Source: Acinetobacter phage YC#06. From it: a stretch of DNA of 48,885 nucleotides. The stretch lies in the sequence record ON391949.1, one strand, 5' to 3'. A program made the position numbers and the translations under genes. Below, piece by piece: positions 3,203 through 48,885 of this stretch; positions within the stretch are counted from its first letter, which is position 1; each line of letters starts with the position of its first letter. The notes under the pieces are model-generated. The model was not told where the DNA came from. It worked only from the letters and a program-made list of their open reading frames with translations, and ran no database searches.

Positions 3203-3216
3203 AAGTCTTCCTGTGA

Positions 3217-3981
3217 TTAATGCGAATAAGGATGTTCTTGTCTGTGCTGACTTGGCGGCACGATATCTGTAATAGCGGTAATACTTTCAACTTCGTCCAT
3301 TTCAAAGAAAAATCGCTCACCACCATTCACAGAAAGCAAACTTAAAACCCCACCATTGATGCCGACAAATTCTTTAATTGTGCATCTTCCATCCTTCAAG
3401 CACACCTGAACAAACTCATTCGGCACAAGATCTGCATCAGGGTCGCATACTACATACCAGCCATTACGAATTGCTGGAAACATTGAGTCGCCAGTGCCTT
3501 TAATGCCATAGGCTCGTGGTCCTGCTGAGTGAGTTGGAACATAACCATCACCACCGTTACCTTCGTATCCCATATCTGTGAAATACCCATCCATACCCAT
3601 CTTTGAATAGGCTTTAACAGGAACGTATCTTTTTTGGGTGGGGAATGGTTTAACAGGTGTTTCAATAAATTTAACAGCATCTTCGCTATCGGGAATATTG
3701 TATTTTTTCTTAAAAGCTTCGATATCCAGAACTTTCAATTGTGCAACAGTGCTATCCAACTTGGGACCGCTTTCATCTCCATTAGTTATATACGAAGTCG
3801 ACACTCCGAAATAAGCGGCCATTTTGCTTAATGGGTCTGCTTTAGGAGCATAAGCATCTTTCTCCCAACCAGTAACATTAGGCGCACTAACCCCAGCGAT
3901 TTTTGCCAACTCGCCTTGGGTTAATTTCTTTTCTCTTCGTAAGGCGCGAATACGCTGACCCATAGTTTCTAGATTCTTCAT
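3217..3981 (-). CDS. CI-like phage repressor (XRE HTH + S24 LexA-like autopeptidase)
   Basis: N-terminal HTH LTQGELAKIAGVSAPNVTGWE; C-terminal GDSMFP serine motif and downstream Lys; divergent from Cro-like gene. Confidence 0.85.
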   Translation of the reverse strand: MKNLETMGQRIRALRREKKLTQGELAKIAGVSAPNVTGWEKDAYAPKADPLSKMAAYFGVSTSYITNGDESGPKLDSTVAQLKVLDIEAFKKKYNIPDSEDAVKFIETPVKPFPTQKRYVPVKAYSKMGMDGYFTDMGYEGNGGDGYVPTHSAGPRAYGIKGTGDSMFPAIRNGWYVVCDPDADLVPNEFVQVCLKDGRCTIKEFVGINGGVLSLLSVNGGERFFFEMDEVESITAITDIVPPSQHRQEHPYSH

Positions 3982-4042
3982 ATAAGTTATCTTACATCTT
4001 GCAAAAATAAGTTATCTTTGTTTTAATACTAAGAAATCTTAT
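3982..4042. promoter_or_regulatory. OR-like operator region: ATAAGTTATCTT at 3982-3994 and 4007-4019, plus TAAGAAATCTTAT at 4029-4042
   Basis: Direct and palindromic repeats between divergent repressor and cro-like genes. Confidence 0.5.
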
Positions 4043-4059
4043 TTTTTGAGGTTGCACAA

Positions 4060-4245
4060 ATGACCAAACAGGAAGCTTATGAGTTGCTTGGTGTCAATGG
4101 TGTTGGCTTGGCAAAGTTATTAGGAATTGAACCACCTGCTGTTTACCAGTGGTCAAATGAAAAAATCCCTTTAGCTCGCGAATACCAAATCAGAGACTTG
4201 GCAAATGGCAAAGAGCCAATCAAACGAACTACTTCAAATGCTTAG
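4060..4245 (+). CDS. Cro-like small HTH regulator
   Basis: 61 aa, divergent from repressor, HTH-like GVGLAKLLGIEPPAVYQW. Confidence 0.6.
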   Translation: MTKQEAYELLGVNGVGLAKLLGIEPPAVYQWSNEKIPLAREYQIRDLANGKEPIKRTTSNA

Positions 4246-4254
4246 GACCTAACC

Positions 4255-4611
4255 ATGAGCAAATTATCAGTTGATATATCTGCAAGCGCCAGAAATGGCG
4301 TATCCCGCATATTGCATGGTCTTGATATAAGCAACCAAAAAGAGATTGCTGAACAATTAAAAGTTGATCCAAGCACTATTACTCGGCTTAAAACAGATAA
4401 GAAAAACAATGGCTTGAATGAAATTGAAATGTTTTGCGAGCTATTGAGCTTGCTTGGTTTAAAAGTCGTTCCTAAAGATTATCAGAGCATTGATAAAGAA
4501 CGGGTTGCTGCACTTTTAGTCATGTCTAAAAGCTGGATGAACCGTATTGAAACAGTGGATGACTTATTTCACGACGAAATCAGCGTTAAGAAAGAAAAGC
4601 TTGGATATTAA
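4255..4611 (+). CDS. CII-like HTH regulator
   Basis: Position after cro; HTH-like QKEIAEQLKVDPSTITRLK. Confidence 0.4.
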   Translation: MSKLSVDISASARNGVSRILHGLDISNQKEIAEQLKVDPSTITRLKTDKKNNGLNEIEMFCELLSLLGLKVVPKDYQSIDKERVAALLVMSKSWMNRIETVDDLFHDEISVKKEKLGY

Positions 4612-4665
4612 AAACCACTACCTGCGCGAACAGGAGTGGTTTCGCATTCACAAATTTAGGAACCC

Positions 4666-4944
4666 ATGAATATGCAAAACAATTTAGCAAATCAATCGGC
4701 TAATTACAACACACCAGAATTTATACCTGGTGACGTTGTAGTGCTTACTAAAGAGTGCCGTACTTTCAAATCAAATGATTTGTTTGAAGTTAAAAATAAA
4801 ACTTTGACTAGGTTGTGGACTATCAAATCGGAGAATCATTTGATTCTGGTTTCATCAAAAGAAATCCGTACAGCAACAGTAGCAGAGCTCAACGCTAAAC
4901 GCCGCCTAACAAAAGCTGAGCAAGCATTAGCGGAGGTGTCATGA
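4666..4944 (+). CDS. hypothetical early protein
   Basis: ORF with RBS, overlapping stop/start with next gene. Confidence 0.4.
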   Translation: MNMQNNLANQSANYNTPEFIPGDVVVLTKECRTFKSNDLFEVKNKTLTRLWTIKSENHLILVSSKEIRTATVAELNAKRRLTKAEQALAEVS

Positions 4945-5237
4945 ACAGCTTTACACACCAAATCAAAGATTCTCGCCAGCAAAGTGAAATCCAATCTTTC
5001 TATGAGCCTGCATTGCGAGTACTTGGCCACCTATTTGAGGTGAAAAAGCAAAATTTACGAAACAAGGGGTATGACGAAAATAATGCGGCGGTAACCAAGG
5101 TTGAATTTTCAGAGGCTATGGCTCGTCAATTTCGCATAACGCAGTGGTTAGCACAACAGATTGTAACCAGCTTAACCAAAGCGTGTTTGGTTGATTCGTT
5201 TGGTGGCTATGTTAAGCCAAAGGATGGTGAAAAGTGA
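4941..5237 (+). CDS. hypothetical early protein
   Basis: ATGA overlap coupling with neighbours. Confidence 0.4.
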   Translation: MNSFTHQIKDSRQQSEIQSFYEPALRVLGHLFEVKKQNLRNKGYDENNAAVTKVEFSEAMARQFRITQWLAQQIVTSLTKACLVDSFGGYVKPKDGEK

Positions 5238-5578
5238 GATATGCAGTAAGAAGAAAACAGGATATTTCCGTTTCCACCACACCGCTAGAGGTGGTAATTC
5301 CACTGGAACAACCAGTAAAGATCTATTCGGCTAAAGAATTAGCAGCTATGCCACTTTCAGTTATGAATGCCGCAATTGAGGCTCAGGAAAGATTTTATCA
5401 ACTTGAAGAATTAACCCATATGGGGGGGGCAGGCTATAGCAGTTCGCCGTCTCATGGAGAATGGGCACAAACTAATTCAGGTGAAAGAAAAGTCTCGTAT
5501 TCGCTACAAAATCAACAACGAATTTATTCCTCCAAGAATTATTCGTCAGTTGGAAATGCGCGGATTAGTGAAGCTTGA
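5234..5578 (+). CDS. hypothetical early protein, frame disturbed by a G8 homopolymer (5422-5429)
   Basis: After the G8 tract this frame gives a Ser-rich low-complexity tail, while the +1 frame reads a plausible C-terminus ...IRYKINNEFIPPRIIRQLEMRGLVKLERGK ending at 5591. Confidence 0.4.
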   Translation: MRYAVRRKQDISVSTTPLEVVIPLEQPVKIYSAKELAAMPLSVMNAAIEAQERFYQLEELTHMGGAGYSSSPSHGEWAQTNSGERKVSYSLQNQQRIYSSKNYSSVGNARISEA

Positions 5579-5649
5579 AAGGGGTAAGTAATGATTATTA
5601 TCACCACTTCAAAGCCCCTTCGAACCCCCTTCAAAGGAGATAAATAACC

Positions 5650-6543
5650 ATGCGTGACTATGGGAAAGTCTCACCACATTTCTGGACGGGAACTACGGGA
5701 AAAAAACTTCGTCAAACACCTGAAGGCTTAATTGTCGCTATGTATTTAATGACAAGCCCTCACGCGAACATGCTTGGCTTGTATTACATACCCCTTCTAT
5801 ATATTGCTCATGAAACTGGCTTGGGCTTTGAAGGGGCTTCTAAGGGGCTTCAAAGAGCCTGTGAAGCGGGGTTTTGTAGCTATGACGAAGCCACGGAGAC
5901 AGTCTGGGTGCACGAGATGGCACGTTTTCAAGTAGCTGAGTCATTAAAGCCAGCCGATAACCGCTGTAAGAACGTGCAAAAAGAGTATGATTCATTGCCG
6001 TCAAGCCCTTATTTATCAAGCTTTTTCGATAAATATGCACAAGCATTTTGTATGACTCAAAAGCGTGGCGAAAACGCCAAAATAGATAGCCCCTTACAAG
6101 CCCCTTCAAAGCCCCTTCGAAGCCAGGAACAGGAACAGGAGCAGGAGCAGGAGCAGGAACAAGAAAATACTCACACACAAAACGCGGTTGAAAATTTTTC
6201 AGCGGCCGAGGAGTCTTGGAAACCAAATCGTGAACTATTGCTGAATGTTCTTAGGACTTCACAAGTGGGTGCACAAGCAGAGCAGGTTTTAAAAATGCCA
6301 AATTATGAATTTCATCTTGGCAACTTCAATGCTCACTGGGAAAACAAAATTGATCTCACGGAAAACCAACGAACTCGAAAGTTTGCAACTTGGTTAATTC
6401 AGGAATTCACAAAGTCGATAAGACCTAAAAAACAAAACTCACCAATGAAAACTGCACCAGCAAGAGACGTAAACAGTGCTTGGGGTGATGCAAAACAGTA
6501 TGCACCAGCCACAGATGATATCGATGTAGGGGAGATGCTATGA
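5650..6543 (+). CDS. replication initiation / replisome organiser protein with internal origin-like iterons
   Basis: Position upstream of DnaC-like loader; iteron clusters and QE-repeat linker inside the gene, as in lambda O. Confidence 0.55.
   Translation: MRDYGKVSPHFWTGTTGKKLRQTPEGLIVAMYLMTSPHANMLGLYYIPLLYIAHETGLGFEGASKGLQRACEAGFCSYDEATETVWVHEMARFQVAESLKPADNRCKNVQKEYDSLPSSPYLSSFFDKYAQAFCMTQKRGENAKIDSPLQAPSKPLRSQEQEQEQEQEQEQENTHTQNAVENFSAAEESWKPNRELLLNVLRTSQVGAQAEQVLKMPNYEFHLGNFNAHWENKIDLTENQRTRKFATWLIQEFTKSIRPKKQNSPMKTAPARDVNSAWGDAKQYAPATDDIDVGEML
5823..5859. repeat. iteron cluster 3x AAGGGGCTT
   Basis: GGGCTTTGAAGGGGCTTCTAAGGGGCTTCAAAGAGCC. Confidence 0.6.
6088..6124. repeat. iteron cluster 3x AAGCCCCTT (inverse orientation); related copy at 5607-5637
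   Basis: AGCCCCTTACAAGCCCCTTCAAAGCCCCTTCGAAGCC. Confidence 0.6.
6124..6165 (+). repeat. hexanucleotide repeat (CAGGAR)x7 encoding (QE)n linker
   Basis: caggaacaggaacaggagcaggagcaggagcaggaacaagaa. Confidence 0.8.
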
Positions 6544-16692: not shown

Positions 16693-16878
16693 CGAAAGGT
16701 ACTACAAATGTCTGAAAAGCAAATCAATATGTCGGATGCTCAATATATTCTGAGCACAAAATTAATTCTGGTGCCATTTCTTCAAATTAAGATTTCAAGA
16801 GCCATGGCAATTTATGGTTTTACTTTTGAAAGATTAAAAGCGATTGCACTCATCAATTAGAACTTAATTTTTAACCTT

Positions 16879-20092: not shown

Positions 20093-20462
20093 TATGGGCT
20101 TACGTGACGAAATTCAGGCAGACATTGCTGAAGCATTTAATGATGATTTGGCTGACGCCGTTCATTCATTTACTTGTGAGCGGATCTCAAAAACTAATTG
20201 GGATCCTAAAACTGAAACATATGTTGAAGTTAAAGAAAACTATTCCGGCCGAGGCGTTCTGTTTGGCTCATACAGTCAATATGAGATTCAGACGCTTGGA
20301 GTATTAGCAACGGATAAGAAGGCGACCTTGCTGCAAAATGAAGTATCCATGACACCTAAAATTGATGATGAATGGCTAACAGCTTTAGGTTCATTTCGAG
20401 TTATCCATATTCAACAAGATCCAATCAGTGCAAGCTGGAAATGTCAGCTTCGAAAAGTGTAG
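20049..20462 (+). CDS. head-tail joining protein
   Basis: Synteny. Confidence 0.35.
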   Translation: MQVLMALAYHFTGLDMGLRDEIQADIAEAFNDDLADAVHSFTCERISKTNWDPKTETYVEVKENYSGRGVLFGSYSQYEIQTLGVLATDKKATLLQNEVSMTPKIDDEWLTALGSFRVIHIQQDPISASWKCQLRKV

Positions 20463-20875
20463 GGGCTAAAATGGTTAATACCGAATATGTTCAAGAGTGG
20501 TACATCACACCTTTTCAGCATGTGCAATACACGCTTGCTAGAAATCAGCTTCACATGGATTTGTTATTTGAAGATATGGATGAAGCTGATCAATTTTTGG
20601 ATATGGGAGCGGATGCACAGGTTAGTACTTTTTCTGATGGTGCATATGCAATCGTCCAAATTGGTGATACGGCGGATAAAGACAAAATTCAAGTATATGG
20701 ATTGCTTTTACATGAAGCGGTTCACGTTTGGCAAATAGTAAAGAAGCGAATGGGTGAAAGTGAACCAAGTGTTGAGTTTGAAGCATATTCAATTCAAGCG
20801 ATCGCTCAAGACCTATTTGAAATGTACGAAGCAAGCGAGGTGAGCAATGGGGTGGAAGGGGAAAAAGCCGACTAG
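20372..20875 (+). CDS. head-tail joining protein
   Basis: Synteny. Confidence 0.35.
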   Translation: MANSFRFISSYPYSTRSNQCKLEMSASKSVGAKMVNTEYVQEWYITPFQHVQYTLARNQLHMDLLFEDMDEADQFLDMGADAQVSTFSDGAYAIVQIGDTADKDKIQVYGLLLHEAVHVWQIVKKRMGESEPSVEFEAYSIQAIAQDLFEMYEASEVSNGVEGEKAD

Positions 20876-21215
20876 TTTTAGTCTTGATGTGGCTAAAACA
20901 GCAGAAGCACATGTAAAGAATATTGTCATGGATACCGTGCAATCCTTAGTTAATTTAAGTCCTGTTGATACTGGAGCATACCGTGCTTCACATATTGTTT
21001 CGATTGGATCTGCTGACTATGGCATACGTGGACCTGAAACAAATGCTATTCAGGATGCAGCAATTCAAGCTGTAAAGATTAAATTGGGCAATTTGGTTTA
21101 TATCCAGAACAACCAGCCTTATGCAGAGCGCTTAGAAAACGGCTGGTCTGATCAAGCACCACAAGGAATTTACAACACCACCTTTACCTTTATTTCTCAG
21201 AAGTATGGCGGCTAA
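20847..21215 (+). CDS. head-tail adaptor-like protein
   Basis: Synteny. Confidence 0.4.
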   Translation: MGWKGKKPTSFSLDVAKTAEAHVKNIVMDTVQSLVNLSPVDTGAYRASHIVSIGSADYGIRGPETNAIQDAAIQAVKIKLGNLVYIQNNQPYAERLENGWSDQAPQGIYNTTFTFISQKYGG

Positions 21216-21928: not shown

Positions 21929-22282
21929 ATGAGCAATTTTGTTTTTAAGCGTGGTGACACATTCAACTTGAACTTGCAGCTGGTTGATATGGATGAAACC
22001 CTGCAGTATCCACCGGATGATGTTCGCCGTGCAATTGATCTAACCGGTTACACCTTTACTTCACAGATTAAAGCTTTGGCTGATGGAGCAGCTGTAGCTA
22101 CCTTGACTTGTGCTGCATTAAATCAAAGTACACAGAAGGGATGGCTGAATATTAAATCTAGTGCAAGCACTGCAACTTGGCCTTTAGGGCTGTGTCAGAT
22201 GGATATTAAAGCTGTAGTTAGTGGTACTACGCAGCACACTGAAACTTTGACTTTCCAAGTGATTGACGGGGTAACAGCATAA
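21929..22282 (+). CDS. Ig-like/fibre-associated small protein
   Basis: Follows terminator 21887-21909. Confidence 0.35.
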   Translation: MSNFVFKRGDTFNLNLQLVDMDETLQYPPDDVRRAIDLTGYTFTSQIKALADGAAVATLTCAALNQSTQKGWLNIKSSASTATWPLGLCQMDIKAVVSGTTQHTETLTFQVIDGVTA

Positions 22283-23277
22283 TGGCAAATCTTGTTTTTA
22301 AATTTAGTTGGGATCACCGGCCATTCCCGTATAACTCGGCTCAGGGAAAACGGCAATTCATGCTGCCATTCGCTTCAGGCATTCCTAATCTGGCACCAAA
22401 CTTTTCGCAGGTCCAAGGTACTGCTGCAGTCTCTCAAGGTGGTACTGGGGCAACCACTGCAGCAGAAGCGCGAAATAATCTTGGTGCTGCTGAAAAAGGT
22501 GTAAATACTGACATTACTGAAATGAAAGGTTTAGCTACTCCACTTTCAGTTGCGCAAGGTGGAACGGGTGCTTCTTCTACAGCAGGTGCTCGTTTAGTTC
22601 TTGGTTTAGGTGATATAGGGACTTCTGGATTTTTTGGAAGTAAAATTAGCGAGCTATATAACAAGGTGTCGGTTCCACAATGGATAGCTGTATTAGGTGA
22701 TAACAAGTTCACTTTCCTATCAAGTGGCGACTGGCAAGCGGGGAATACAAAGAACCCACTTAATATGCCTAGCCGATATGGTTCTTTAATGTCGTATTTG
22801 GGATCAAGCTCATATGGAACGTATTCATGGCAGATTTTTAAGGCAGTATTGGGTGGACAGCTTTCCTACCGATATGGGGCAGGAAATAATGTCTGGACTA
22901 CATGGGGACACATTAAAACCAGCTTTAATACATCAGTCGATGCAAATGGGTTCTTAAAATCGGCATCACCAGTAGTGAAGTTATTTAATGATCATATTGA
23001 ACTTAATAGTGATGCAGAAAAGCAACCAATCGAATTTAAGAAAGTTGATGTAGGCGATTATTTAATTAAGGGCTCTTTAGTCTTTGCACAGGAAGGTTGG
23101 TATATCGAAGCACCTAAAGACGCAAACGGCAACACAATCGTTGCAGTAGTGTATGACACCCTAGAAAATGGTGACATCTCAATTAAAACTTACAAGCGTA
23201 AGTTTGATTTTGAACTTGCTGCTGTTGTGGCAGATCACGAGAACCCAATGGACATTCCAGAAGGCAGTAGTGTATGA
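22282..23277 (+). CDS. tail fibre protein, N-terminal/main part (frame ends inside 121-bp duplication)
   Basis: Repeated QGGTGA(T/S) motifs typical of phage fibre N-termini; stop created in second repeat copy. Confidence 0.55.
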   Translation: MANLVFKFSWDHRPFPYNSAQGKRQFMLPFASGIPNLAPNFSQVQGTAAVSQGGTGATTAAEARNNLGAAEKGVNTDITEMKGLATPLSVAQGGTGASSTAGARLVLGLGDIGTSGFFGSKISELYNKVSVPQWIAVLGDNKFTFLSSGDWQAGNTKNPLNMPSRYGSLMSYLGSSSYGTYSWQIFKAVLGGQLSYRYGAGNNVWTTWGHIKTSFNTSVDANGFLKSASPVVKLFNDHIELNSDAEKQPIEFKKVDVGDYLIKGSLVFAQEGWYIEAPKDANGNTIVAVVYDTLENGDISIKTYKRKFDFELAAVVADHENPMDIPEGSSV

Positions 23278-23384
23278 CACCCTAGAAAATGGTGACATCT
23301 CAATTAAAACTTACAAGCGTAAGTTTGATTTTGAACTTGCTGCTGTTGCCATTGTAGCTGATCTCGAAAATCCACTTGATATTC
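23143..23384 (+). repeat. tandem duplication, period 121 bp (first 85 bp identical, last 36 bp diverged)
   Basis: gcagtagtgtatgacaccctagaaaatggtgacatctcaattaaaacttacaagcgtaagtttgattttgaacttgctgctgttg at 23143 and 23264. Confidence 0.9.
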
Positions 23385-23557
23385 CAGAAGGCCGCTGGAT
23401 TGATATCCGTCTGCATGAAGAACCTGAACCAGAGCCTGAAGAGCCGTTGAGTGAAACACCAGTGGATTTCCAGCCGACTAACTTATCTCAGGCAGTTGCT
23501 GCAGCCATGAATGGCGTGGAACCGCCAGAAATCTCAGAAACAGACGAAACACTTTAA
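23168..23557 (+). CDS. tail fibre C-terminal segment in shifted frame
   Basis: Re-reads the duplicated VVYDTLENGDISIKTYKRKFDFELAAV peptide then continues to an acidic C-terminus. Confidence 0.4.
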   Translation: MVTSQLKLTSVSLILNLLLLWQITRTQWTFQKAVVYDTLENGDISIKTYKRKFDFELAAVAIVADLENPLDIPEGRWIDIRLHEEPEPEPEEPLSETPVDFQPTNLSQAVAAAMNGVEPPEISETDETL

Positions 23558-24596: not shown

Positions 24597-25112
24597 ATGG
24601 CTTTAAAAGTCGGAATTATTAAAAGCTCAGACGTATCAAAATGGTGTGAATACAAGGGTGCTGATGGCGATGTACAGGCTGAGTTCAAAGTCCGTGGTAT
24701 CGCTTATAAGCCTTTTCAGGTAGCTATTGAACGGGCAGGAAACCAGATCTCGTCTAAAGGCTATGATGTGATGGTCAAAGATGAAGATGCCAAGCTTTAC
24801 CACGAGCTTTTAATGGATGCATGCGCGGCCCACTTAATCGAAGACTGGAAAGGTGTGGTATTTGCCGAAATCGTAGACGGTAAAACTGTTGAGTCCGAAA
24901 AGCCATATACACCTGAGAATGCCTCAAAGCTTCTTAATCTTGGTGATATTGGTATTTCAATCTGGCTATTCATTAAAGAACAGGCCCAGAAGATTCAGGA
25001 AGACGCAGACAAGGACAAGGCTTTAATTCTGGGAAAGTCATGGAGCTCTACAAATACCAAAAAACGTATGCGTCGAAAACGCCGCACGAAATCGAGCAAA
25101 TCAAGTTCTTAG
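24597..25112 (+). CDS. tail assembly chaperone (lambda gpG analogue)
   Basis: Precedes tape measure; contains slippery heptamer near the 3' end. Confidence 0.6.
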   Translation: MALKVGIIKSSDVSKWCEYKGADGDVQAEFKVRGIAYKPFQVAIERAGNQISSKGYDVMVKDEDAKLYHELLMDACAAHLIEDWKGVVFAEIVDGKTVESEKPYTPENASKLLNLGDIGISIWLFIKEQAQKIQEDADKDKALILGKSWSSTNTKKRMRRKRRTKSSKSSS

Positions 25113-25234
25113 GATTCAGGAAGACGCAGACAAGGACAAGGCTTTAATTCTGGGAAAGTCATGGAGCTCTACAAATACCAAAAAACGTATGCGTCGAAAA
25201 CGCCGCACGAAATCGAGCAAATCAAGTTCTTAGG
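24993..25234 (+). repeat. perfect tandem duplication, period 121 bp, spanning the frameshift site and the G stop codon
   Basis: 24993-25113 identical to 25114-25234. Confidence 0.95.
25031..25037 (+). other. programmed -1 ribosomal frameshift slippery heptamer G GGA AAG (second copy at 25152-25158)
   Basis: Identical to lambda G/GT slippery sequence; correct frame relationship G(0) to T(-1). Confidence 0.6.
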
Positions 25235-27834: not shown

Positions 27835-28410
27835 TTGATTAATGACCGCCTTTTGGCGGTTTTTTATTGCCTAGAGGAAAGTAAAATGGCACAAGAATCC
27901 CGTTTGGTCATTGTTATTGATTCGCAAAATGCTGAACGTAATGCGCGTAATCTAGGCAATGAACTTGTTAGCATTGAACGTAAAGGTGAATTTGCATCTA
28001 AGTCTATGGACAGCTTGTCTGTAGCCACCAGAGCTTTAGCTGGACACATGGCTGGTTTATTAACAGTAGGTTCAGCCATTTCAAAGATGGATACATATAC
28101 TGGATTACAAAATCGCCTTAAGTTAGTCACTAACAATCAAGTTGAACTAAATAAAGCAACGGAAGACACTTTCCGAATTGCTCAAAAAACCTATTCAGCT
28201 TGGGATTCTGTGTTACAGGTTTACCAGCGTTTTAGTGATAATGCCAAAACTTTAAACCTCACAATGGATGACACAGCACGTTTAACTGAAACAGTTTCTA
28301 AAGCTGTAGCAATTAGTGGTGCAAGCGCAGAAGCTGCTGATGCAGCTTTAGTTCAGTTCGGGCAGGCCTTGGCTAGTGGAACGTTGCGTGGACACTGCTC
28401 GACTAACTGA
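27835..28410 (+). CDS. tape measure protein N-terminal fragment (true start likely ATG 27887)
   Basis: Ends just inside second copy of 121-bp repeat; the duplicated peptide DTARLTETVSKAVAISGASAEAADAALVQFGQALASGTLRG is shared with next ORF. Confidence 0.5.
   Translation: MINDRLLAVFYCLEESKMAQESRLVIVIDSQNAERNARNLGNELVSIERKGEFASKSMDSLSVATRALAGHMAGLLTVGSAISKMDTYTGLQNRLKLVTNNQVELNKATEDTFRIAQKTYSAWDSVLQVYQRFSDNAKTLNLTMDDTARLTETVSKAVAISGASAEAADAALVQFGQALASGTLRGHCSTN
27844..27866 (+). terminator. rho-independent terminator before tape measure
   Basis: gaccgccttttggcggt + T6. Confidence 0.55.
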
Positions 28411-28511
28411 AACAGTATCAAAAGCAGTTGCGATCAGTGGTGCAAGCGCAGAAGCTGCTGATGCAGCTTTAGTACAATTTGGGCAGGCTTTGGCAAGCGG
28501 TACATTACGTG
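28270..28511 (+). repeat. tandem duplication, period 121 bp, copies differ only at synonymous positions
   Basis: Copy at 28270 and copy at 28391 encode identical 41-aa peptide with about 21 synonymous differences. Confidence 0.9.
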
Positions 28512-31500
28512 GTGAAGAACTCAACTCAGTTATGGAACAAACACCAGCTCTAGCAAAGGCTATTGCTCAAGGCATGGGGATCACCGTAGGAGAGTTGCGT
28601 TCAGTTGCGGCTGAAGGAAAAATTACTTCACAAGAAATCGTTAAAGCGCTTAAAAATGTCCAAGATGAAGTTGATGCTCTTTTTGCTAAAACTGACATTA
28701 CAATTGGTCAATCATTAACTCTACTTAATAATGAAATTACTAAATTTGTAGGAGAGGCTGGTAAAGGAAGCGGAGCAGCACAGGCTTTATCAGGATCGAT
28801 TCAGTTATTAGCAAATAATTTGAATTTAATTGCAGACAGTGCATTTGCCATAGGTATTGGCTTAATGACAAAAGCCGTTTTAACAAAAACGGTTGCTGTA
28901 CAAGCGAGCATTGCTGCGTCAACCAAACAAGTGTTTGCCACAATTGCTGAACGTAATGCAAATATTGCAGCAGCAAAAGCTGAAGTGGAATCTGCGCTTG
29001 CCGAAGCACAAAGTACACAGGTGACACTAACGAACATCAAAGCTACTCATGCTCAGATCATGGCAGAAATAGAACTCGAAAAAGTTCGTTTAAAAGCCCA
29101 AATCACTGAACAAGGTCGCACGGCTACCATCACACGAATGGCTCAGCTTGGACGATTACAAGCTCAAGTTGCGTTAGAGGTTGCTGCTGCGGAAACAGCA
29201 CAGTCTGCAGCTTCATCTAGATTATCAGCAGCCTTAACAGCGCAATCTGTTGCTACTAGCCGTTTAGCTTTAGCAAAGTCAGCGCTTATGGCGATTTTTA
29301 GCCCAATGGGTTTAGCAATTGCAGCAACAGCCGCATCTTTCTATTTACTAAGCAGCAGTTCGGATGAAGTCAAAGAGTCTCTTGCAACACAATCTGACTC
29401 GGTTAGTGATTTAACAGATAAGTACATAAAGTTAAATACTGTGCAAGCATTAACAGAGGGTGTGCGGTTACGCAAAGAGATTGAGCAGCAAAATGATGCA
29501 ATTGATGATGCTAGTGGAGCTATCAAACGTTTTGCTTATATCCAAAAGGAATTATTTAAATTATCTGGCAGTGATTATGAAGATTATCAAAATGCCATTA
29601 AGTCTATTGCTACAGGTGCAAGCGATGCAGGTGATCTCTTAAAAAAGATGATTTCATCTGGTCGTTTTAGTCAGACTCAAATTGATAAACTTATTGAGTT
29701 CTCTAGTGTAGTAGCAGAATCAAAAAATAAGATTGAGCAGGGTAATACTGCTCTAAAACTCTTAAATGCTACTTCTGGACAACATGTTGAGGTAACGGCC
29801 GAATCAATTAAGCAATTAACTATTCAAACCAACTTAACAAAAGTTGCTACTCAAAATTTCACTGACATGAAAACACAAATGCTTGATTCATTACGAGCAC
29901 AAGTGGAATTCATTCGGTTAAATGGTGGTAGCGAAGAACAAGTTAAATCGTTGAATAAGGTAATCCAGGCATATTCTTTAAATCAAATTTCAGCAACTGA
30001 TGCTGTGGACAAGTTCAACAGTACTGCCAAAGTTCCTGCTGAAAATATCAAGGGGTTACAGGATTATGCTACTAAAACGGATCAGTCTAAAATTGCGTTG
30101 AATCAGGCTAATGCTGAGCTGAAGAAACAAAACGACTTACGTAATGAGTACCTAAAACAACATCAAACTGTACTTGGTGCTCAACAAGGAGAAACAAATG
30201 AATTAAATAACCAAGTCGCTGCACAAGAAAAGTTAAATAAGTTACGAGACAACGCCAACAAAGATATTCTGAAAAATGATTTTCTTATAAAAAACACTAA
30301 GGCATTTGGTGGTGGCGAAAAGGGTCTTGATAAGGCGCGTGCGGCATCAGAGTTTTATACCGACAATAAAATTCCGATGACTAGAAGTTTAACTAGTCAG
30401 GAAGCTGCAATTTTTGAGGCTTGGTATAAGAAGCAGAAGGAAGCCAAGGACTTACAAGAAAGTATTACCGAATCTAGCAGAAAGCAAACAAAAGAGGTTG
30501 AAAAACAAACCAAAGAGTCTGCCAAACAAGCTGTTCTACTTGCTGGAAATGATGAGCGAGTGAGAAATATGCTACGAGTGTATCTGGCATTTCGAAATGC
30601 AGGTTTAGGCGATAAACAAGCTCGTGTAATGACAGCTCAAGTTGGACGAGAGACTGATTTTAGAAATGAGGCAATGTTTGGTAGCCATAAGGATGAAAAT
30701 AATGGTTATACAAATACTGGATTTTTATCATGGCAAAAAAGTCGCTCAACTAAATTAATGCAGTCTTTACAAGGGCAAGGAGTCTTGGATAAAAACGGTA
30801 AAATCCAGCAAACTCAAGATGCATTAGATGCAATGGCTAAACACGCTGTGCAAGAGGCGATGACCGATAAAAGTTATAGTAAATCTAAAGCAGCTCTTCT
30901 TAATGACGATTTAGACTATCGAAGTTTAGAGAGAATTGTTGCCAAAAATTTTGTTGGCTGGGACTATGACGGGAAAAAGCTTGGCAAAGCTAAAGCTTCA
31001 CAGCATTTAGCCAAACAAGACTCTTACTATAATCAGCTTAGTAAAATTTTAGGGGATAACCCCGAAGCAGCCTCAAAAGCAATTAGTGATCTTTCGAAAT
31101 TCGAAGATGAAGCATATAAGGCACGTGCAAAAACTCTTGAGGAAATTAAGCAGCTCCAAGCAACATATGATTCAGAAACAGTTGCTAGAAGCAAAAAACG
31201 TGAGGAGGAAATCAACAAAGCAACCATTTTAGGTCAATCAAATTTAATCCCAAAAATTAATGAGCGTTATGATGCTGAAGATAAGTTAGCTCAGAAGCAA
31301 TTTGATTTTGAAGTAAATGGTTATAAGTGGACTGAGAAGCAAAAGCTTGAGTACACATATGAAATCAATTCTTTGCGATTAGTTGCTGAAGGCAAACTCT
31401 CTGAAGATCAAAGAAAGGTTGCTTTAGATGGCCTGGAATTGCAAAAGCAGCAAGAGTTAGGATTACTAAAACTTGCTCAGGAACAGCGGTTGTTTCAGGC

Positions 31501-32902
31501 TGAGCAATTCATGCTGGGAGAAATGGAGCGTATCAAAAAACGTTATGCGCTTGAGTATGATGAAATATCAAAAATCACTGATCTTGAAGAGCGTAGAAGG
31601 AAGATGAGTGCATTTCAGGCTGATTTTATTCGTAATGGTGTGGGGAATCCAACAATTGATCAGTATGATACCTCTAGTCAGTTTCTTAAATCGACAAACT
31701 ACACCAAGCCCAAGCAAACCAATATGCAAGTATTGGATGAAGATTACGCTCAAACTTATCAAAAGTTGAAAGATAATCTTGCAGCTGTTTTGGAGTCTGA
31801 AAAAGCTAGTTATCAGGAACGATTGGAGGCGGAGCGCGTATTCAAAGAAGCAAGACAGCAAATGGATAATGAGTACCACCTGAAGGCGATTGATGCAAGA
31901 AAAGCAGATCACGACAGTCAATTGCAATTATACAGTCAGATGATTTCATCTGCTTCAAGCACATGGGGAGGTTTAACTCAAATTGTTAAGGATGCGCGTG
32001 GTGAAAATTCACGCTCTTTCAAGGCAATGTTTATAGCTCAACAATCCTTTGCTATTGCTTCTGCGATTATCTCTGCTCATTTGGCAGCTACACAAGTAGC
32101 TGCTGATGCAACGATCCCATTTTTTGGGGCAAAAATTGCGGCTTCAACCGCCATGCTTGCTATGGGATATGCAAATGCTGGTTTGATTGCTGGGCAAACA
32201 ATAGCTGGATTCTCAGATGGTGGTTACACTGGATCTGGTAGAAAATATGAACCTGCAGGTATTGTCCATAAAGGAGAGGTGGTATGGTCCCAAGAGGATA
32301 TTAAACGCTGGGGCGGAGTTGGTTTAGTTGAGAAAATGCGTAAGAGTGCAAACCCTGAAGCTTTTCTCAATAACAATGCCTCGGCAGATAGTGTCATGCG
32401 CCGTGCAATGATGAGTTCTAATGCCTTTATAGAAAGCCAAAAGCAGGCTGACATCTTTAATCAACCAGTTCAAGATACTCAGATTATCTATAAGGGTAAT
32501 AGAGACACACCTAAGTTAGCTTCTTCGGCAAATTCTGACCTGTTCCATGATGGCAAGGTCTACTTCTCATCCAATGGTATAGTTCAGGATCGCTCAAATC
32601 TGGATGATGTTCAGGACTTTACTTTAGGACGTACTTCACGCCCTCAAGCTGAGATTATGCCTTCAATTGAGCAATCCTCTCCAACTATCAATTTCAAGAT
32701 TGAAGTCGTGAATCAAGTCAGTGGTGCAACTGTTGAAGCTGAACAACTGGATGAGCAAACAGTCCGGATCATTGTTAAAGATGAACTGGATAAGCAGCTT
32801 CCAAGAACGGTACCTAAGCTTGTAAGTGATCAAATCGCAAATCCAAACTCAACCATTAGTCGGTCTTTGACTGAGAATACGACAGCAAGACGGAATCGAT
32901 AA
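28376..32902 (+). CDS. tail tape measure protein
   Basis: 1508 aa, long coiled-coil regions, C-terminal hydrophobic/Gly-rich region. Confidence 0.85.
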   Translation: MERCVDTARLTETVSKAVAISGASAEAADAALVQFGQALASGTLRGEELNSVMEQTPALAKAIAQGMGITVGELRSVAAEGKITSQEIVKALKNVQDEVDALFAKTDITIGQSLTLLNNEITKFVGEAGKGSGAAQALSGSIQLLANNLNLIADSAFAIGIGLMTKAVLTKTVAVQASIAASTKQVFATIAERNANIAAAKAEVESALAEAQSTQVTLTNIKATHAQIMAEIELEKVRLKAQITEQGRTATITRMAQLGRLQAQVALEVAAAETAQSAASSRLSAALTAQSVATSRLALAKSALMAIFSPMGLAIAATAASFYLLSSSSDEVKESLATQSDSVSDLTDKYIKLNTVQALTEGVRLRKEIEQQNDAIDDASGAIKRFAYIQKELFKLSGSDYEDYQNAIKSIATGASDAGDLLKKMISSGRFSQTQIDKLIEFSSVVAESKNKIEQGNTALKLLNATSGQHVEVTAESIKQLTIQTNLTKVATQNFTDMKTQMLDSLRAQVEFIRLNGGSEEQVKSLNKVIQAYSLNQISATDAVDKFNSTAKVPAENIKGLQDYATKTDQSKIALNQANAELKKQNDLRNEYLKQHQTVLGAQQGETNELNNQVAAQEKLNKLRDNANKDILKNDFLIKNTKAFGGGEKGLDKARAASEFYTDNKIPMTRSLTSQEAAIFEAWYKKQKEAKDLQESITESSRKQTKEVEKQTKESAKQAVLLAGNDERVRNMLRVYLAFRNAGLGDKQARVMTAQVGRETDFRNEAMFGSHKDENNGYTNTGFLSWQKSRSTKLMQSLQGQGVLDKNGKIQQTQDALDAMAKHAVQEAMTDKSYSKSKAALLNDDLDYRSLERIVAKNFVGWDYDGKKLGKAKASQHLAKQDSYYNQLSKILGDNPEAASKAISDLSKFEDEAYKARAKTLEEIKQLQATYDSETVARSKKREEEINKATILGQSNLIPKINERYDAEDKLAQKQFDFEVNGYKWTEKQKLEYTYEINSLRLVAEGKLSEDQRKVALDGLELQKQQELGLLKLAQEQRLFQAEQFMLGEMERIKKRYALEYDEISKITDLEERRRKMSAFQADFIRNGVGNPTIDQYDTSSQFLKSTNYTKPKQTNMQVLDEDYAQTYQKLKDNLAAVLESEKASYQERLEAERVFKEARQQMDNEYHLKAIDARKADHDSQLQLYSQMISSASSTWGGLTQIVKDARGENSRSFKAMFIAQQSFAIASAIISAHLAATQVAADATIPFFGAKIAASTAMLAMGYANAGLIAGQTIAGFSDGGYTGSGRKYEPAGIVHKGEVVWSQEDIKRWGGVGLVEKMRKSANPEAFLNNNASADSVMRRAMMSSNAFIESQKQADIFNQPVQDTQIIYKGNRDTPKLASSANSDLFHDGKVYFSSNGIVQDRSNLDDVQDFTLGRTSRPQAEIMPSIEQSSPTINFKIEVVNQVSGATVEAEQLDEQTVRIIVKDELDKQLPRTVPKLVSDQIANPNSTISRSLTENTTARRNR

Positions 32903-43949: not shown

Positions 43950-45148
43950 GCTGTCATCCCCGTTTTAGCTAATGTTTCAATGTCTTGTTTAACTGCTGGT
44001 AGTTTTGCCTCTTCAATTTGGATAAGGGCATCTATGCCGAAGTGTTCACAAACTGTTTTCACGTCTAGGCCGCGTTCAGCTATAAAGTTTTGAAGTTCAT
44101 CTCTTTGTTGATCTGAGATACCGTTAAATTCTGGTGGACTAATCCAAGTGCCACGTTGTTTATCAAACGTGCAATTCAATGCTTTAGCTCTCATTAACAT
44201 TGCTTGGCGCATGTTCTGGTAATACATGTGTTCTTTATCAAGCGACTCAGTTAATTGATTAAGGTCACCTGCATGCTCAGCTTCTTCACAGCTTTGTTTC
44301 CAGTTTTCTAGCTCTTCTTGGGCTTTAGCTGCTGCAAGTTGTGCAGGCGTTAAGGTGTTAATGTGATCTTTAGCTTGAGTAATCAGGTCAGCCAAGAAAG
44401 TAGGATGTGCTTTAAGATCAGGCACCCATACTTCACCGGTTTCACCGCCTAAAGCACCTGAGTTTTTCGCATGATGTGTAGGCGAAGGTTTGAAATTAAT
44501 AACGCGGGCATTTTTACCTTCACCAGTAGTAACAGTTGTTAGATAACCCATGACATCTGCAATACGGTAAAGCTCGTTACGGTTTTTACCACCTAGATCT
44601 GGTCGGTAAATAATTTGATCACCGTTTTGATCTTCTGATGCGTGTGCAATGAAAACAACATCTTTACCTAAACTGATCAAAGTATTGATGTATTGCTTAA
44701 AAGTTTGGTTCGCTAAACCTTGAGCCTTTAACTTTAAAGAGCCATCTTTTTGACGGTTATTAGCAGTTAGCAATAGATGGGTTTTAATGCATTCAAGCAT
44801 TGCACCCACGGTATCAATGACTACGGTTTTATATGGTGCTAAGTCCTGCGGAGTAAGGTTTGCAACATCACTCCATTGTTGAACCTGTACAACCGCACCT
44901 CGACGTAATTCACCAGTACGGTGAGCACCACGGTCAAAGTCAAAAGAAATTGCTTTTTCCGCAGTAAAGCCCATCGATGATTTACCTAAACCCGGATCCG
45001 CGTATAGGTACACAATAATTGCTTGAACCAATAAAGTTTGGTCAGCAGTAATAATCGGTAGAGCCATTTTATTATCCTTATCTTGAGCCAGTGAAGCCGC
45101 GCTTAGTTTTATAAGCTTTGCGGTCACGTGTAGGGATGTTTGTTTCAC
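43946..45148 (-). CDS. P-loop NTPase, AAA_24/Sak4-like recombination ATPase with C-terminal extension
   Basis: Walker A-like YADPGLGKSS, Walker B VVIDTVG. Confidence 0.45.
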   Translation of the reverse strand: MKQTSLHVTAKLIKLSAASLAQDKDNKMALPIITADQTLLVQAIIVYLYADPGLGKSSMGFTAEKAISFDFDRGAHRTGELRRGAVVQVQQWSDVANLTPQDLAPYKTVVIDTVGAMLECIKTHLLLTANNRQKDGSLKLKAQGLANQTFKQYINTLISLGKDVVFIAHASEDQNGDQIIYRPDLGGKNRNELYRIADVMGYLTTVTTGEGKNARVINFKPSPTHHAKNSGALGGETGEVWVPDLKAHPTFLADLITQAKDHINTLTPAQLAAAKAQEELENWKQSCEEAEHAGDLNQLTESLDKEHMYYQNMRQAMLMRAKALNCTFDKQRGTWISPPEFNGISDQQRDELQNFIAERGLDVKTVCEHFGIDALIQIEEAKLPAVKQDIETLAKTGMTA

Positions 45149-45401
45149 GTAGCTTTATTGCGAGCTGCTTTCTGCGTTGGAAGTCGATTTCTTGTGTGAG
45201 TTCATTCCAAACTTTTGGATAGTCAGTTTGGAACTTTTCAACGTCCAAAGGTGTCTTAACTGAGTCCTTCACCTTGTAAAGAACTGAGCCATTAGCATTA
45301 GATGCGTACACTTGCCAGCCAATGCGGACAGAGTAGAGGCCCTTATCATCACGGCCTAAAAATGACTTGTAGCCGTCAGGGTGTTTTTTGAAATTAGTCA
45401 T
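45078..45401 (-). CDS. hypothetical protein
   Basis: GGAGG RBS upstream of ATG at 45399-45401. Confidence 0.4.
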   Translation of the reverse strand: MTNFKKHPDGYKSFLGRDDKGLYSVRIGWQVYASNANGSVLYKVKDSVKTPLDVEKFQTDYPKVWNELTQEIDFQRRKQLAIKLRETNIPTRDRKAYKTKRGFTGSR

Positions 45402-45473
45402 CTTTAAGCCTCCAACAACTTGTTACGTTCGATGAAGCCTCTCGAGCACACGCGCCACACGTACACCCGTTAG

Positions 45474-46683
45474 GGAAACGCTGATCAATGAGCCTGTCGT
45501 CCGCATAACGGACGAGGCAGGTTGCAATTTTCAGATTGACGTAGGAATTTGACGACATGCGAGGTGAGTTTCGCTCGTATTCGGGCCTCACTTCCCGCGT
45601 TTTTCACACACATGACGGATTGCTCCCATGAGTCGACAACAGCTGATTTTTCGCGATCACCAGGTTCGCCAGCGCGAACAGACTGAACAGCTGTGCCGTG
45701 TTCCTGGCTAGACCCTTGTAGCGCACCTTGCGATGACGAAACAGGTTCTTCACGACATGAAACGGATGCTCGACCCGGGCGCGGATCTGCGCCTTGGTTC
45801 GCTCGACCGCGATCACGAGGTCCTTCAGCGGACCTTCCTGCATCGCCCTGATCTTTCCGCGCTTGAGCGCCACGTGCCACTTCACCGTCTTGCCCTTCAT
45901 CTCCTCGCGCTTGTCCACGCCGGTGTAGCCCGCATCGCCAAACGCTTCCTGCTCATGACCGTGCAGCAGGGCGTGGGCCTGCGATACGTCCGGCTCGTTG
46001 GCCGCCGTGGTGACCACGCTATGCACCAGACCCGAGTCGGCGTCGACGCCGACATGGGCCTTCATGCCGAAATACCAGTCGTTGCCCTTCTTCGTCTGAT
46101 GCATCTCCGGGTCACGGCTCTTCCCGGCGTTCTTCGTGGACGGCGCAGCCTCGAAGATCGTCGCATCCACCAGCGTGCCTTCCTTCATCATCAGCCCGCG
46201 CTCGCACAACTCGATGCCGATCTCGTCGAACAGCTTTCGCGTCAGTGCGTGCTCGACCAGCAGGCGCCGGAATTTCAACAGCGTGGTGGCGTCCGGCACG
46301 TTCTCGCGCGCCAGGTCGATGCCCGCGAAGGCGCGCATCGCGATGCTGTCGTAGAGCGCATCTTCAAGCCCTTCGTCCGACAACCCGTACCACTGCTGCA
46401 GCAAGTAGATCCGCAGCATCCGTTCCAGGCCAATCGGCGGCCGGCCACGCTCGCCCTTCGGGTAATACGGCCCGATCACCGACAGCAGCCGCGACCAAGG
46501 GACGACCTTCTCCATCTCGGCCAGAAAGCGTTGACGCTTGGTCACCCGCTTCTTGCCCGCACTTTCCGCTTCCGCAAAACCGATCTGCCGCTGCATCGTC
46601 GTGGGTCCGTTCCGTGAGCTTCTTTCTACAACGCCCTTGGCCTCGTCAGCGATGACCGCCAAGCCGAATTGATCAGTGTTTCC
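45474..46683 (-). mobile_element. IS5-family insertion sequence, 1210 bp, 16-bp imperfect IRs GGAAACRCTGATCAAT, TSD TTAG (45470-45473 and 46684-46687)
   Basis: 65% GC island in a 40% GC background; terminal inverted repeats and flanking 4-bp direct repeat matching IS5 YTAR target. Confidence 0.8.
45604..46662 (-). CDS. IS5-family DDE transposase
   Basis: Alignable along full length to E. coli IS5 transposase (…LRIYLLQQWYGLSDEGLEDALYD…DPEMHQTKKGNDWYFGMKAHVGVD…RARVEHPF…). Confidence 0.85.
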   Translation of the reverse strand: MAVIADEAKGVVERSSRNGPTTMQRQIGFAEAESAGKKRVTKRQRFLAEMEKVVPWSRLLSVIGPYYPKGERGRPPIGLERMLRIYLLQQWYGLSDEGLEDALYDSIAMRAFAGIDLARENVPDATTLLKFRRLLVEHALTRKLFDEIGIELCERGLMMKEGTLVDATIFEAAPSTKNAGKSRDPEMHQTKKGNDWYFGMKAHVGVDADSGLVHSVVTTAANEPDVSQAHALLHGHEQEAFGDAGYTGVDKREEMKGKTVKWHVALKRGKIRAMQEGPLKDLVIAVERTKAQIRARVEHPFHVVKNLFRHRKVRYKGLARNTAQLFSLFALANLVIAKNQLLSTHGSNPSCV

Positions 46684-47349
46684 TTAGCGAGAAGGACCAC
46701 TCTGTACTCCGGTCTCACTATTTTTTCTAAAAAGATAATGTTTGAAGCAATTAAATACATTCCAAAAATTTCGACCTTGGACTACATTTTCGTACTTGAT
46801 CCAAGCGCTAAAAGTAACTTTTTGGTACAACCTTGAGCTGAAATCTGGTTCAAGGTTGAACGTTAAAGTAGAGTTGTTCTCTAGCCTATAGCATTCTTTT
46901 TGACCTGTGACGTGGTTTTCAGGTAATTTTTCAATTACAGCTCCAACCGTCTTGGATTTTATCCATAGATTCCGTCCTCCCACCTTCATTTTTGAAAATT
47001 CTTCACGCAATTTCCCAGCTTCAGATACAACTAAAGTCTTATCTGCTTTATCCTTGGTTGCGTTCAGGATTTCCTGACGGATAGAGCCAGCTCGCACCTC
47101 AAATTCAGCCTGACTCAACTTCTGATTTAGCTTGTTCTGCGTGTCTGTCTCAAGCCTCTTCACAGATTGCCGGATATTTTCAGCAGTCACATTGAGTGAG
47201 CTGATATCCACTTTGGTTCTAAGCCCTTCAGTCAAGCTTCTCACACCAGCGTCGAGCGAGTTGGCTCGTTGTTTAAAGGTCGATTCTACTGTTGAAATCT
47301 GCAACTCAACAAGCGCGTAGGGCACGTCTACAAGAAAGCATTTATGCAA
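46684..47349 (-). pseudogene. 5'-truncated ORF (beta-rich C-terminal domain, possibly fibre-like); its first 15 codons are antisense T7 RNAP sequence
   Basis: The ORF's own stop codon TAA overlaps the IS target duplication; homology break at about 47302. Confidence 0.3.
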
Positions 47350-47846
47350 GTTGTCGAGGCTGACATGCTCTCTAAGGGTCTACTCGGTGGCGAGGCGTGG
47401 TCTTCGTGGCATAAGGAAGACTCTATTCATGTAGGAGTACGCTGATATCTGCATCGAGATGCTCATTGAGTCAACCGGAATGGTTAGCTTACACCGCCAA
47501 AATGCTGGCGTAGTAGGTCAAGACTCTGAGACTATCGAACTCGGATATCAATACGCTGAGGCTATCGCAACCCGTGCAGGTGCGCTGGCTGGCATCTCTC
47601 CGATGTTCCAACCTTGCGTAGTTCCTCCTAAGCCGTGGACTGGGATATCTGGTGGTGGCTATTGGGCTAACGGTCGTCGTCCTCTGGCGCTGGTGCGTAC
47701 TCACAGTAAGAAAGCACTGATGCGCTACGAAGACGTTTACATGGATATCGTGTACAAAGCGATTAACATTGCGCAAAACACCGCATGGAAAATCAACAAG
47801 AAAGTCCTAGCGGTCGCCAACGTAATCACCAAGTGGAAGCATTGTC
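47303..47846 (+). pseudogene. bacteriophage T7 gene 1 (RNA polymerase) internal fragment, about residues 95-277, carrying GATATC hexamers at 47444, 47544, 47644, 47744
   Basis: Near-exact DNA and protein identity to T7 RNAP except at the hexamers (APE to GYQ, ITG to ISG, PEV to DIV, and a frameshifting change at the first). Confidence 0.75.
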
Positions 47847-48458
47847 TTCACCGAGATTGGCCTGAAGACCTTAGGGTCCAAGGATGCTGGTGTCCGCGCA
47901 ATCGCTCAAGACCTCGTGCGCTCTCCAACAGGGATGCAATCAGGGTCTAGCGGTAAGTTCGGTGCGACCGCTTCGGATATCCACGAGCGGCTCCACGCTA
48001 CAGACCAACGGATGTATAACCAGCTGTATGACGCTGTTGACCGTGCCATGAAGGACCCTGAGTTCTCCATCGGTGAGCAGAAGATGTCCCGTAAGGCTAT
48101 CCGTCAGGAAGTGTACAAGCGTGCTGCCTTGGCGATTGAGCGCCCAGAGCTACAGGCTGACTTGACCAAAGGTGAACGTGAGGTAATGGACTTGCTGAAA
48201 GAGCACTTCGATACCAAGCGTGAACTGATGGAACAGCCCGGTATCTTTGGCAACGCCAACGCCGTAAGCATCTTCCCCGGTAGTCGTCATAAAGGAACCT
48301 ACGTACCTAACGTGTACGATAGGGGCGCTAAGGAGCTGATGACTCAGAAGCTGGGTGGACCCGAAGGACTCTCATACGGGTCATCTGGTAGAACAGGCTG
48401 TACTTCAGCGCGTGCTTACCGTCTGCATCACGTGCCGTCTGGTAGTCCTGTCGGATAA
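47847..48458 (+). pseudogene. T7-like gp16 (internal virion protein D) internal fragment fused in frame to the RNAP fragment
   Basis: FTEIGLKTLGS...LVRSPTGMQSG.SGKFGATASDIHERLH...RAALAIERPELQ...HFDTKRELME...SIFP.SRHKGTYVP.VYDR matches T7-group gp16. Confidence 0.5.
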
Positions 48459-48870
48459 CCTCGTCACGGATAACCAAGCGGTGACTTGCCAGTACAGGCT
48501 CAAGGGTATCGCAGATACGGGCCTCTTTCATACCACGAGCACGAATCTCTTCGAGTTGCGCTGGGTGATGCTTCAGGAGCACAGGCTGGAACACGTTACC
48601 GAACATACCGTCACCGAAGTTACTCTCGAAGACCACAGTCTGCACCTGCCACTGTTTGGCTTTCTTAGCGAGGAACTCAAGGGACTTCTCTTCGTAACCA
48701 CGGGTACCTCCAGCGTCCATCAAGTAGATGTAACCGTTGAGGGTGTACAGCACGCACCAACCAGTTTCATCCTTACCGCGACCACTGGGGTCAATGACCA
48801 GAATCTTACCCTGATACGCACCAGTGTTACTGGAGGCTGTATGGAAGGAGTAAATCTCGTCACCCTTCAT
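48328..48870 (-). pseudogene. T7-like gp19 (terminase large subunit) C-terminal region fragment, antisense to the gp16 fragment
   Basis: [17 protein letters not shown] ... [10 protein letters not shown] ... GMKEARI resembles T7 gp19. Confidence 0.5.
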
Positions 48871-48885
48871 GCCAACGTTAGGAAG

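Follow-up and report, generated by a model that had tools for sequence, protein, structure and literature searches.

The window (the whole stretch of DNA that was analysed, 48,885 nt, from the Acinetobacter phage YC#06 record ON391949.1) consists of a body of Acinetobacter phage sequence (1–45442, + strand) followed from position 45443 by a tail of five blocks, whose donors have hosts in Burkholderia, Streptococcus, Escherichia and Klebsiella. The blocks measure 1251, 608, 545, 525 and 514 nt in the order in which they are joined; all are at least 500 nt long, and five sizes would fall in descending order by chance once in 120. All junctions in the tail are blunt, with neither N spacers nor microhomology. 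The GC content of the tail blocks is 41–61%, against 39% in the body, and the only complete gene in any of them is an IS transposase. Apart from the block derived from phage T7, the tail blocks match their nearest database entries at 98–99.9% identity, and never at 100%.

The first tail block (45443–46693, 1251 nt, 60.7% GC) contains a complete copy of ISBmu23 (1210 nt, 45474–46683), 99.9% identical to the copy in Burkholderia phage KS5. The block is laid out as a 27-nt flank, TTAG, the IS, TTAG and a further 6 nt. Phage KS5 itself was ruled out as the source of the block, as the flanks differ beyond the TTAG target, and searches of the GTDB representatives did not find an origin for the 27-nt flank. 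The initial annotation had placed the T7-like fragments beside a high-GC IS in an Acinetobacter-type phage, and this proved correct, the position being the end of that phage. Although the IS is complete and has TTAG on both sides, it was not acquired by transposition into the Acinetobacter phage, because its left flank is GC-rich and not of Acinetobacter type, its right flank is pneumococcal, and Acinetobacter sequence never resumes after 45442. The pneumococcal block (46694–47301, 608 nt, antisense) is an internal fragment of a PblB-type gene from a Streptococcus pneumoniae prophage, 98.3% identical to phage IPP8; this segment occurs repeatedly within those pneumococcal phages.

The third block (47302–47846, + strand) is an internal fragment of T7 gene 1, which encodes RNA polymerase. 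Its 545 nt comprise 538 native and 7 inserted nt and map to positions 3675–4212 of the T7 genome (NC_001604), that is, to nt 505–1042 of gene 1 (T7 3171–5822), or about residues 169–347 of the protein. The block was compared base by base with T7, and the differences were one 7-nt insertion and 12 substituted bases in three hexamers; otherwise there were no mismatches over the 538 native positions. The near-identity to T7 that had been noted from the letters is thus complete apart from the changes that create EcoRV sites. At site 1 (47444–47449), the hexamer GATATC was introduced by insertion of TGATATC (47443–47449, with equivalent placements within 1 nt), which shifts the RNA polymerase frame by +1. 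The other three sites are overwrites of native hexamers: CACCTG at site 2 (47544–47549; T7 3910–3915, starting at gene nt 740), CATTAC at site 3 (47644–47649; T7 4010–4015, gene nt 840) and CCTGAG at site 4 (47744–47749; T7 4110–4115, gene nt 940). Comparison with the T7 protein bore out the amino acid changes listed by the initial annotation (APE to GYQ at site 2, ITG to ISG at site 3 and PE to DI at site 4) and the frame shift at the first site; its description of four 6-nt substitutions holds for sites 2–4 and has to be replaced by an insertion for site 1. The overwrites begin at codon positions 2, 3 and 1, respectively, and alter conserved residues. A 31-mer across one edited site is given as an example: ATCGAACTCGGATATCAATACGCTGAGGCTA.

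A listing of all GATATC sites returned 17 in the 48,885-nt window, and the four at 47444, 47544, 47644 and 47744 have the exact 100-nt period that had been reported. A search of the whole window for arithmetic progressions of any hexamer, with at least four terms and periods from 10 to 1000, found this series and no other, and no progression of at least four terms arose in 30 shuffles of the window. The naive probability of a four-site GATATC ruler arising by chance is ~7e-10. EcoRV cuts bluntly (GAT^ATC) and would divide the T7 block into pieces of 145, 100, 100, 100 and 100 nt, so that the cuts lie exactly 100, 200, 300 and 400 nt from the right end of the block. The distance from the site 4 cut to that end is therefore also exactly 100 nt, and the suggestion that the junction falls where a fifth site would be can be sharpened: the junction is in register and coincides exactly with the position of a fifth blunt cut. 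The end itself reads GTC, the native T7 sequence, and a physical EcoRV product should end in GAT. A further GATATC at 47976 lies outside the T7 block and is native to the Klebsiella phage fragment that follows.

The ruler is a product of design and neither of evolution nor of chance, since the block departs from T7 at the edited positions alone and the cuts are in register with its end. The increments are exactly equal, and the changes have no coding purpose; because the edits disregard both reading frame and protein, the design would concern fragment size or marking and not polymerase function. The exact register of the right end suggests that it is the intact end of a designed fragment and not a random break.

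Judged from its sequence, the T7 block is not a functional gene. A T7-type RNA polymerase gene would be a complete open reading frame that runs from start to stop over ~883 codons; the block holds 20% of gene 1, has neither start nor stop, and is flanked by unrelated sequence. The frame is interrupted by the insertion at 47443–47449, after which stops appear in the original frame, and the 12 designed base changes, which alter conserved residues, would likewise prevent the block from encoding a polymerase. The insertion moves the RNA polymerase frame from 1 mod 3 to 2 mod 3, and the adjoining gp16-type fragment is read in 0 mod 3. An in-frame fusion of the two at 47846/47847, as initially annotated, was rejected on these frames, and with it an RNA polymerase–gp16 fusion protein. 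An open reading frame does span the junction (47459–47950), and it reads the gp16 part out of frame.

The last two blocks were found to come from Klebsiella phage and not from T7, so that a T7 origin of all three fragments, as first proposed, holds for the RNA polymerase piece and for neither of the others. The closest match of both is the KP32-like Klebsiella Przondovirus HZJ31. The fourth block (47847–48371, + strand, 525 nt) is 99.8% identical to HZJ31, with one mismatch, and is an internal part of the gene for its 1321-aa gp16-type internal virion protein. The fifth (48372–48885, – strand, 514 nt) is 98.4% identical to HZJ31, is an internal fragment of the large terminase (TerL) gene, and runs to the end of the window. 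In HZJ31 the two regions are ~8 kb apart; in the window they abut, in opposite orientation. The initial annotation was right in placing the gp19-like fragment antisense to the gp16 piece; the overlap that it described is a chance run-on of the antisense open reading frame over 43 nt, the DNA blocks themselves abutting at 48371/48372. Nor is any of the RNA polymerase, gp16-type and terminase pieces a complete gene, as had been stated; all three are internal fragments. An Autographiviridae module would have complete, collinear genes 1, 16 and 19 on one strand and from one lineage. The arrangement in the window is not such a module, because the pieces are internal fragments, a Teseptimavirus sequence stands beside Przondovirus sequences, the TerL piece runs antisense and the frames do not continue across the junctions. 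The region 47303–48885 is not a biological element, and no mechanism underlies it; it corresponds to the three final blocks of a tail in which five unrelated sequences directly follow one another.

The edited T7 sequence was sought in public collections. All T7 and DE3 records matched the T7 block at 96.5%, as did all of the 28 E. coli genomes in which gene 1 is present (28/28). Matches at this level mean that the T7, DE3 and E. coli copies have the native bases at the ruler sites. GATATC hexamers at these positions were found in no T7-group sequence, and a natural T7 relative carrying the ruler was ruled out on this evidence. One of the two observations that the initial annotation had said would overturn its reading, hexamers native to a T7 relative, is therefore contradicted by every relative searched. 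The other, a contiguous genome with intact genes 1, 16 and 19, is contradicted by the presence of internal fragments only. The PLSDB plasmids returned no match to the edited block. Exact searches with the edited context of site 2 gave no hits in IMG/VR, GTDB genomes or JGI metagenomes, and those with the edited context of site 1 none in JGI metagenomes; a native 32-mer, used as the positive control for these searches, found 3 viral contigs. A recurrent public contaminant was ruled out by the absence of exact matches in IMG/VR, GTDB and JGI metagenomes together with the blank PLSDB search. The chimeric junction between the T7 and gp16-type blocks was absent from IMG/VR. Exact look-ups of the products of two chimeric open reading frames found them on record nowhere in the collections searched, and those of the edge-truncated TerL product and of a tape-measure product truncated by a duplication in the body (see below) were also empty. 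In the literature, no published construct with a 100-nt EcoRV design in T7 gene 1 was found.

The closest published parallels to the ruler are plasmids made as sources of size markers, pPSU1, pPSU2 and pHAPE, which resemble the block in that sites were designed into carrier DNA of no relevance in itself, at intervals of exactly 100 bp; one of the two enzymes used with the pPSU plasmids is EcoRV. In those plasmids, it is PstI that cuts at 100-bp steps, EcoRV giving steps of 0.5–10 kb, and the carrier is mostly lambda DNA. The carrier of pHAPE is a random sequence, and the plasmid relies on other enzymes for its steps. Neither pPSU nor pHAPE contains T7 gene 1, and the block in the window has no adjoining vector sequence. 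These ladder plasmids were ruled out as the source, given the different enzymes for the 100-bp steps, the different carriers and the blank PLSDB search. The block also resembles T7 gene 1 itself and its copies in lambda DE3 lysogens and expression plasmids, with which it has 538 identical nt in common (T7 3675–4212) and from which it differs in being partial and frameshifted by the 7-nt insertion.

The body of the window was aligned to Acinetobacter phage YMC/09/02/B1251 (Vieuvirus, NC_019541), to positions 1–45048 of which it corresponds at about 99.2% identity. The window begins exactly at position 1 of NC_019541, an arbitrary reference start. The 373 mismatches occur in clusters, as short patches that resemble alleles and are common to other Acinetobacter phages and to A. 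baumannii prophages, and random simulated mutation of the body was ruled out on these grounds. Three tandem duplications, each with a period of 121 nt, lie at ~23143–23386, 24992–25234 and 28270–28512, with their junctions near 23265, 25113 and 28391. The copies at 24992–25234 are 100% identical and those at 28270–28512 are 86% identical; the copies of the remaining duplication are identical over the first 85 nt only. With just one of the three exact, a plain de Bruijn overlap of k = 121 was ruled out as the full cause of the duplications. The first copy at 28270–28512 is 100% identical to a tape-measure allele of other Acinetobacter phages, and this match stops at the junction. The duplications split the tail-fibre gene (22282–23277 and 23168–23557) and the tape-measure gene (27835–28410 and 28376–32902). 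The broken tail-fibre and tape-measure genes indicate that the body was stitched from overlapping pieces and would not be viable as written. At its right end, the prophage-type sequence stops at 45442/45443, 37 nt into a gene for a 146-aa protein. In A. baumannii prophages this gene is conserved beside a gene for a 107-aa protein, for which the public collection has 1625 indexed blocks.

The edits to the T7 fragment, the unrelated fragments joined bluntly and the stitched body together support the initial suggestion of engineered DNA, a barcode or a constructed or contaminated contig. Among the forms that this could take, we favour, as probable on balance, one in which leftover or contaminant contigs were appended to a Vieuvirus assembly that had been ordered on a reference and imperfectly stitched. 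Short-read contigs would have been ordered on NC_019541 with overlaps of ~121 nt left unmerged, and the leftover contigs, each of 500 nt or more, would then have been appended in the assembler's descending order of size. The appended contigs may stem from other DNA that was handled in the laboratory or sequenced in the same run and was carried over at a low level; they would derive from an IS of Burkholderia type, a repeat of pneumococcal prophages, a construct with T7 gene 1 and a Klebsiella phage. Only carry-over sequences of high copy number would have assembled, which could account for the presence of the IS, the repeated segment of PblB, the phage DNA and the synthetic fragment of T7. In the last of these, a 538-nt piece of gene 1 would have served as neutral stuffer that received three overwrites and a 7-nt insertion, and digestion with EcoRV would release four fragments of 100 bp and one of 145 bp. 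We infer that the appended blocks are real assembled contaminants and not text composed in silico, and that the EcoRV design served the sizing or marking of a fragment. The identities of 98–99.9% and the derivation of two blocks from one Klebsiella lineage fit real co-sequenced DNA better than random pasting.

The window has the features of a stitched pseudomolecule: junctions that break genes, overlaps of fixed length and size-ordered blocks that are unrelated to one another. Its closest counterparts are reference-ordered pseudomolecules to which unplaced contigs have been appended, as contig-ordering tools usually produce, and cross-contaminated or chimeric database records. In keeping with these, the order and orientation of the body contigs follow the reference, unmerged overlaps of a fixed 121 nt remain, the leftovers of at least 500 nt are ordered by size without biological continuity, and the foreign blocks favour high-copy sequences. 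Usual pseudomolecules differ in their N spacers, which the window lacks, and two of the three overlaps in the window are allelic, so that the history proposed here is a resemblance and not a demonstrated course of events. Several observations weigh against the leftover-contig explanation. The two non-identical 121-nt overlaps are unlike plain de Bruijn k-mer overlap, and a start at reference position 1 would equally suit a derived or simulated sequence. The literature yielded no published EcoRV construct that matches, the right end of the T7 block has the native GTC and not GAT, and site 1 was inserted as 7 nt whereas sites 2–4 were overwritten. That the edited T7 fragment in particular was real, unpublished designed DNA that leaked into the phage library and from there into the genome is plausible, and we put it forward tentatively, at a level short of probable. 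Such DNA could have been an in-house EcoRV standard with 100-bp steps, a spike-in that had been marked, or a stuffer cassette with a shifted frame.

The principal alternative is that the window, or at least its tail and ruler, was composed in silico for simulation, benchmarking or testing, and that the molecule never existed; we regard this as possible and somewhat doubtful. It would account readily for overwrites that ignore coding, begin at nt 740, 840 and 940 of gene 1 and leave sites centred exactly 100, 200, 300 and 400 nt from the end of the block, for the uniformly blunt junctions free of N spacers and microhomology, for the start at position 1 of NC_019541 and for three duplications with an identical 121-nt period; nor does any public collection that was searched contain the edited sequence, the junction of the chimera or the products of its chimeric open reading frames. 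Against composition in silico, the blocks are 98.3–99.9% identical to phage records and none is a 100% copy of a record searched, the flanks of ISBmu23 are unlike those in KS5, and the divergence of the body and of the duplicated copies is natural allelic variation of Acinetobacter phages and not random mutation. The descending block sizes with a floor of ~500 nt resemble assembler output, and a simple overwrite script would not yield a 7-nt insertion at site 1.

Two further explanations accept the window as a real molecule. A physically real engineered phage or construct, with the EcoRV ruler as a watermark or barcode, would be in keeping with a ruler that is clearly designed, and engineered phages do carry diagnostic restriction sites. 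It is nevertheless very unlikely, as the appended pieces are truncated, internal, of mixed orientation and out of frame, with no unit that runs from promoter to stop; cloning scars, vector and selection markers are absent, and a phage in which duplications of 121 nt interrupt the essential genes for tail fibre and tape measure could not be viable. The other explanation, that of a natural mosaic, would have an Acinetobacter phage acquire T7-like genes and an IS horizontally, the spacing of the sites being due to chance or selection. In its favour are the mosaic nature of phages and the presence of an entire IS between duplicated TTAG sequences. The donors, however, have four unrelated hosts (Streptococcus, Burkholderia, Escherichia and Klebsiella), the pieces are all internal fragments, and they retain 98–100% nucleotide identity to their sources without amelioration, at a GC content of 41–61% beside a body of 39%. 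The T7 piece is moreover laboratory T7 except for the ruler, whose hexamers occur in no relative and whose probability by chance is ~7e-10, with none in 30 shuffles. A natural mosaic is effectively refuted and can be set aside for practical purposes.

The stretch is an artefact or engineered DNA and contains no new gene, element or mechanism. As it stands, the record should not serve as the complete genome of an Acinetobacter phage: its final 3.4 kb are foreign, and duplications of 121 nt left by stitching are present in three structural-gene regions. Unless it is corrected, the record could give rise to unfounded reports of gene transfer between genera, with a polymerase from T7, a terminase from Klebsiella, an IS from Burkholderia and a pneumococcal PblB. 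If the edited T7 fragment is indeed leaked designed DNA, it would be an uncatalogued laboratory contaminant for which phage and virome assemblies should be screened, and 32-mers from the edited T7 sequence offer a handy screen for the same contaminant or construct elsewhere. The value of the finding lies in data hygiene and not in biology.

Three tandem duplications (23143-23386, 24992-25234 and 28270-28512) were found in the Acinetobacter-derived body of the record (1-45442), each with a period of 121 nt. The period is not divisible by 3, and the tail-fibre and tape-measure genes are broken by the duplications. The two copies are exact in one of the three, and in one of the three the first copy is an allele found in other Acinetobacter phages. 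The duplications mark contig overlaps that were left unmerged, some of these overlaps being allelic rather than identical. The start of the record coincides with position 1 of the body's reference, Acinetobacter phage YMC/09/02/B1251 (NC_019541), a position which is itself arbitrary. At the right end of the body (45413-45442), an AbTJ-like allele stands where the reference has its final 316 nt, and the sequence is cut off 37 nt into a conserved prophage gene of 146 aa.

The block that follows (45443-46693) contains a complete ISBmu23 element of 1210 nt, bounded on each side by TTAG and 99.9% identical to the one carried by Burkholderia phage KS5. It is adjoined by a GC-rich flank of 27 nt, for which no match was found in KS5 or among GTDB representative genomes. 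This block probably derives from some high-GC bacterium, as a collapsed repeat contig. Next to it, an internal fragment of a PblB-type gene (46694-47301, 608 nt, coding on the minus strand) was assigned to a Streptococcus pneumoniae prophage, with 98.3% identity to pneumococcal phage IPP8; up to five copies of this segment occur in a single pneumococcal phage record. In the gp16-type block (47847-48371), the GATATC at 47976 is native to Klebsiella phage HZJ31 and lies off register with the GATATC series at 47444, 47544, 47644 and 47744 in the T7 gene 1 block. The sole mismatch to HZJ31, A to G, immediately precedes this hexamer (the two together span 47975-47981), an adjacency that is probably coincidental.

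Isolated indels of 1-2 nt relative to NC_019541 were located at 5422, 8146, 16798-16799, 27886 and 40128, and may be genuine differences or the result of sequencing error in one record or the other. One isolated indel lies directly upstream of the tape-measure start codon. All 373 mismatches to the reference fall inside short patches of ~10% divergence, forming 46 clusters across 3176-45395 (for example 20424-21143, 24629-24896 and 45071-45395) with kilobases of perfect identity between them. These patches reflect either mosaicism resembling gene conversion among A. baumannii prophages or an assembly that mixed the alleles of two related prophages.
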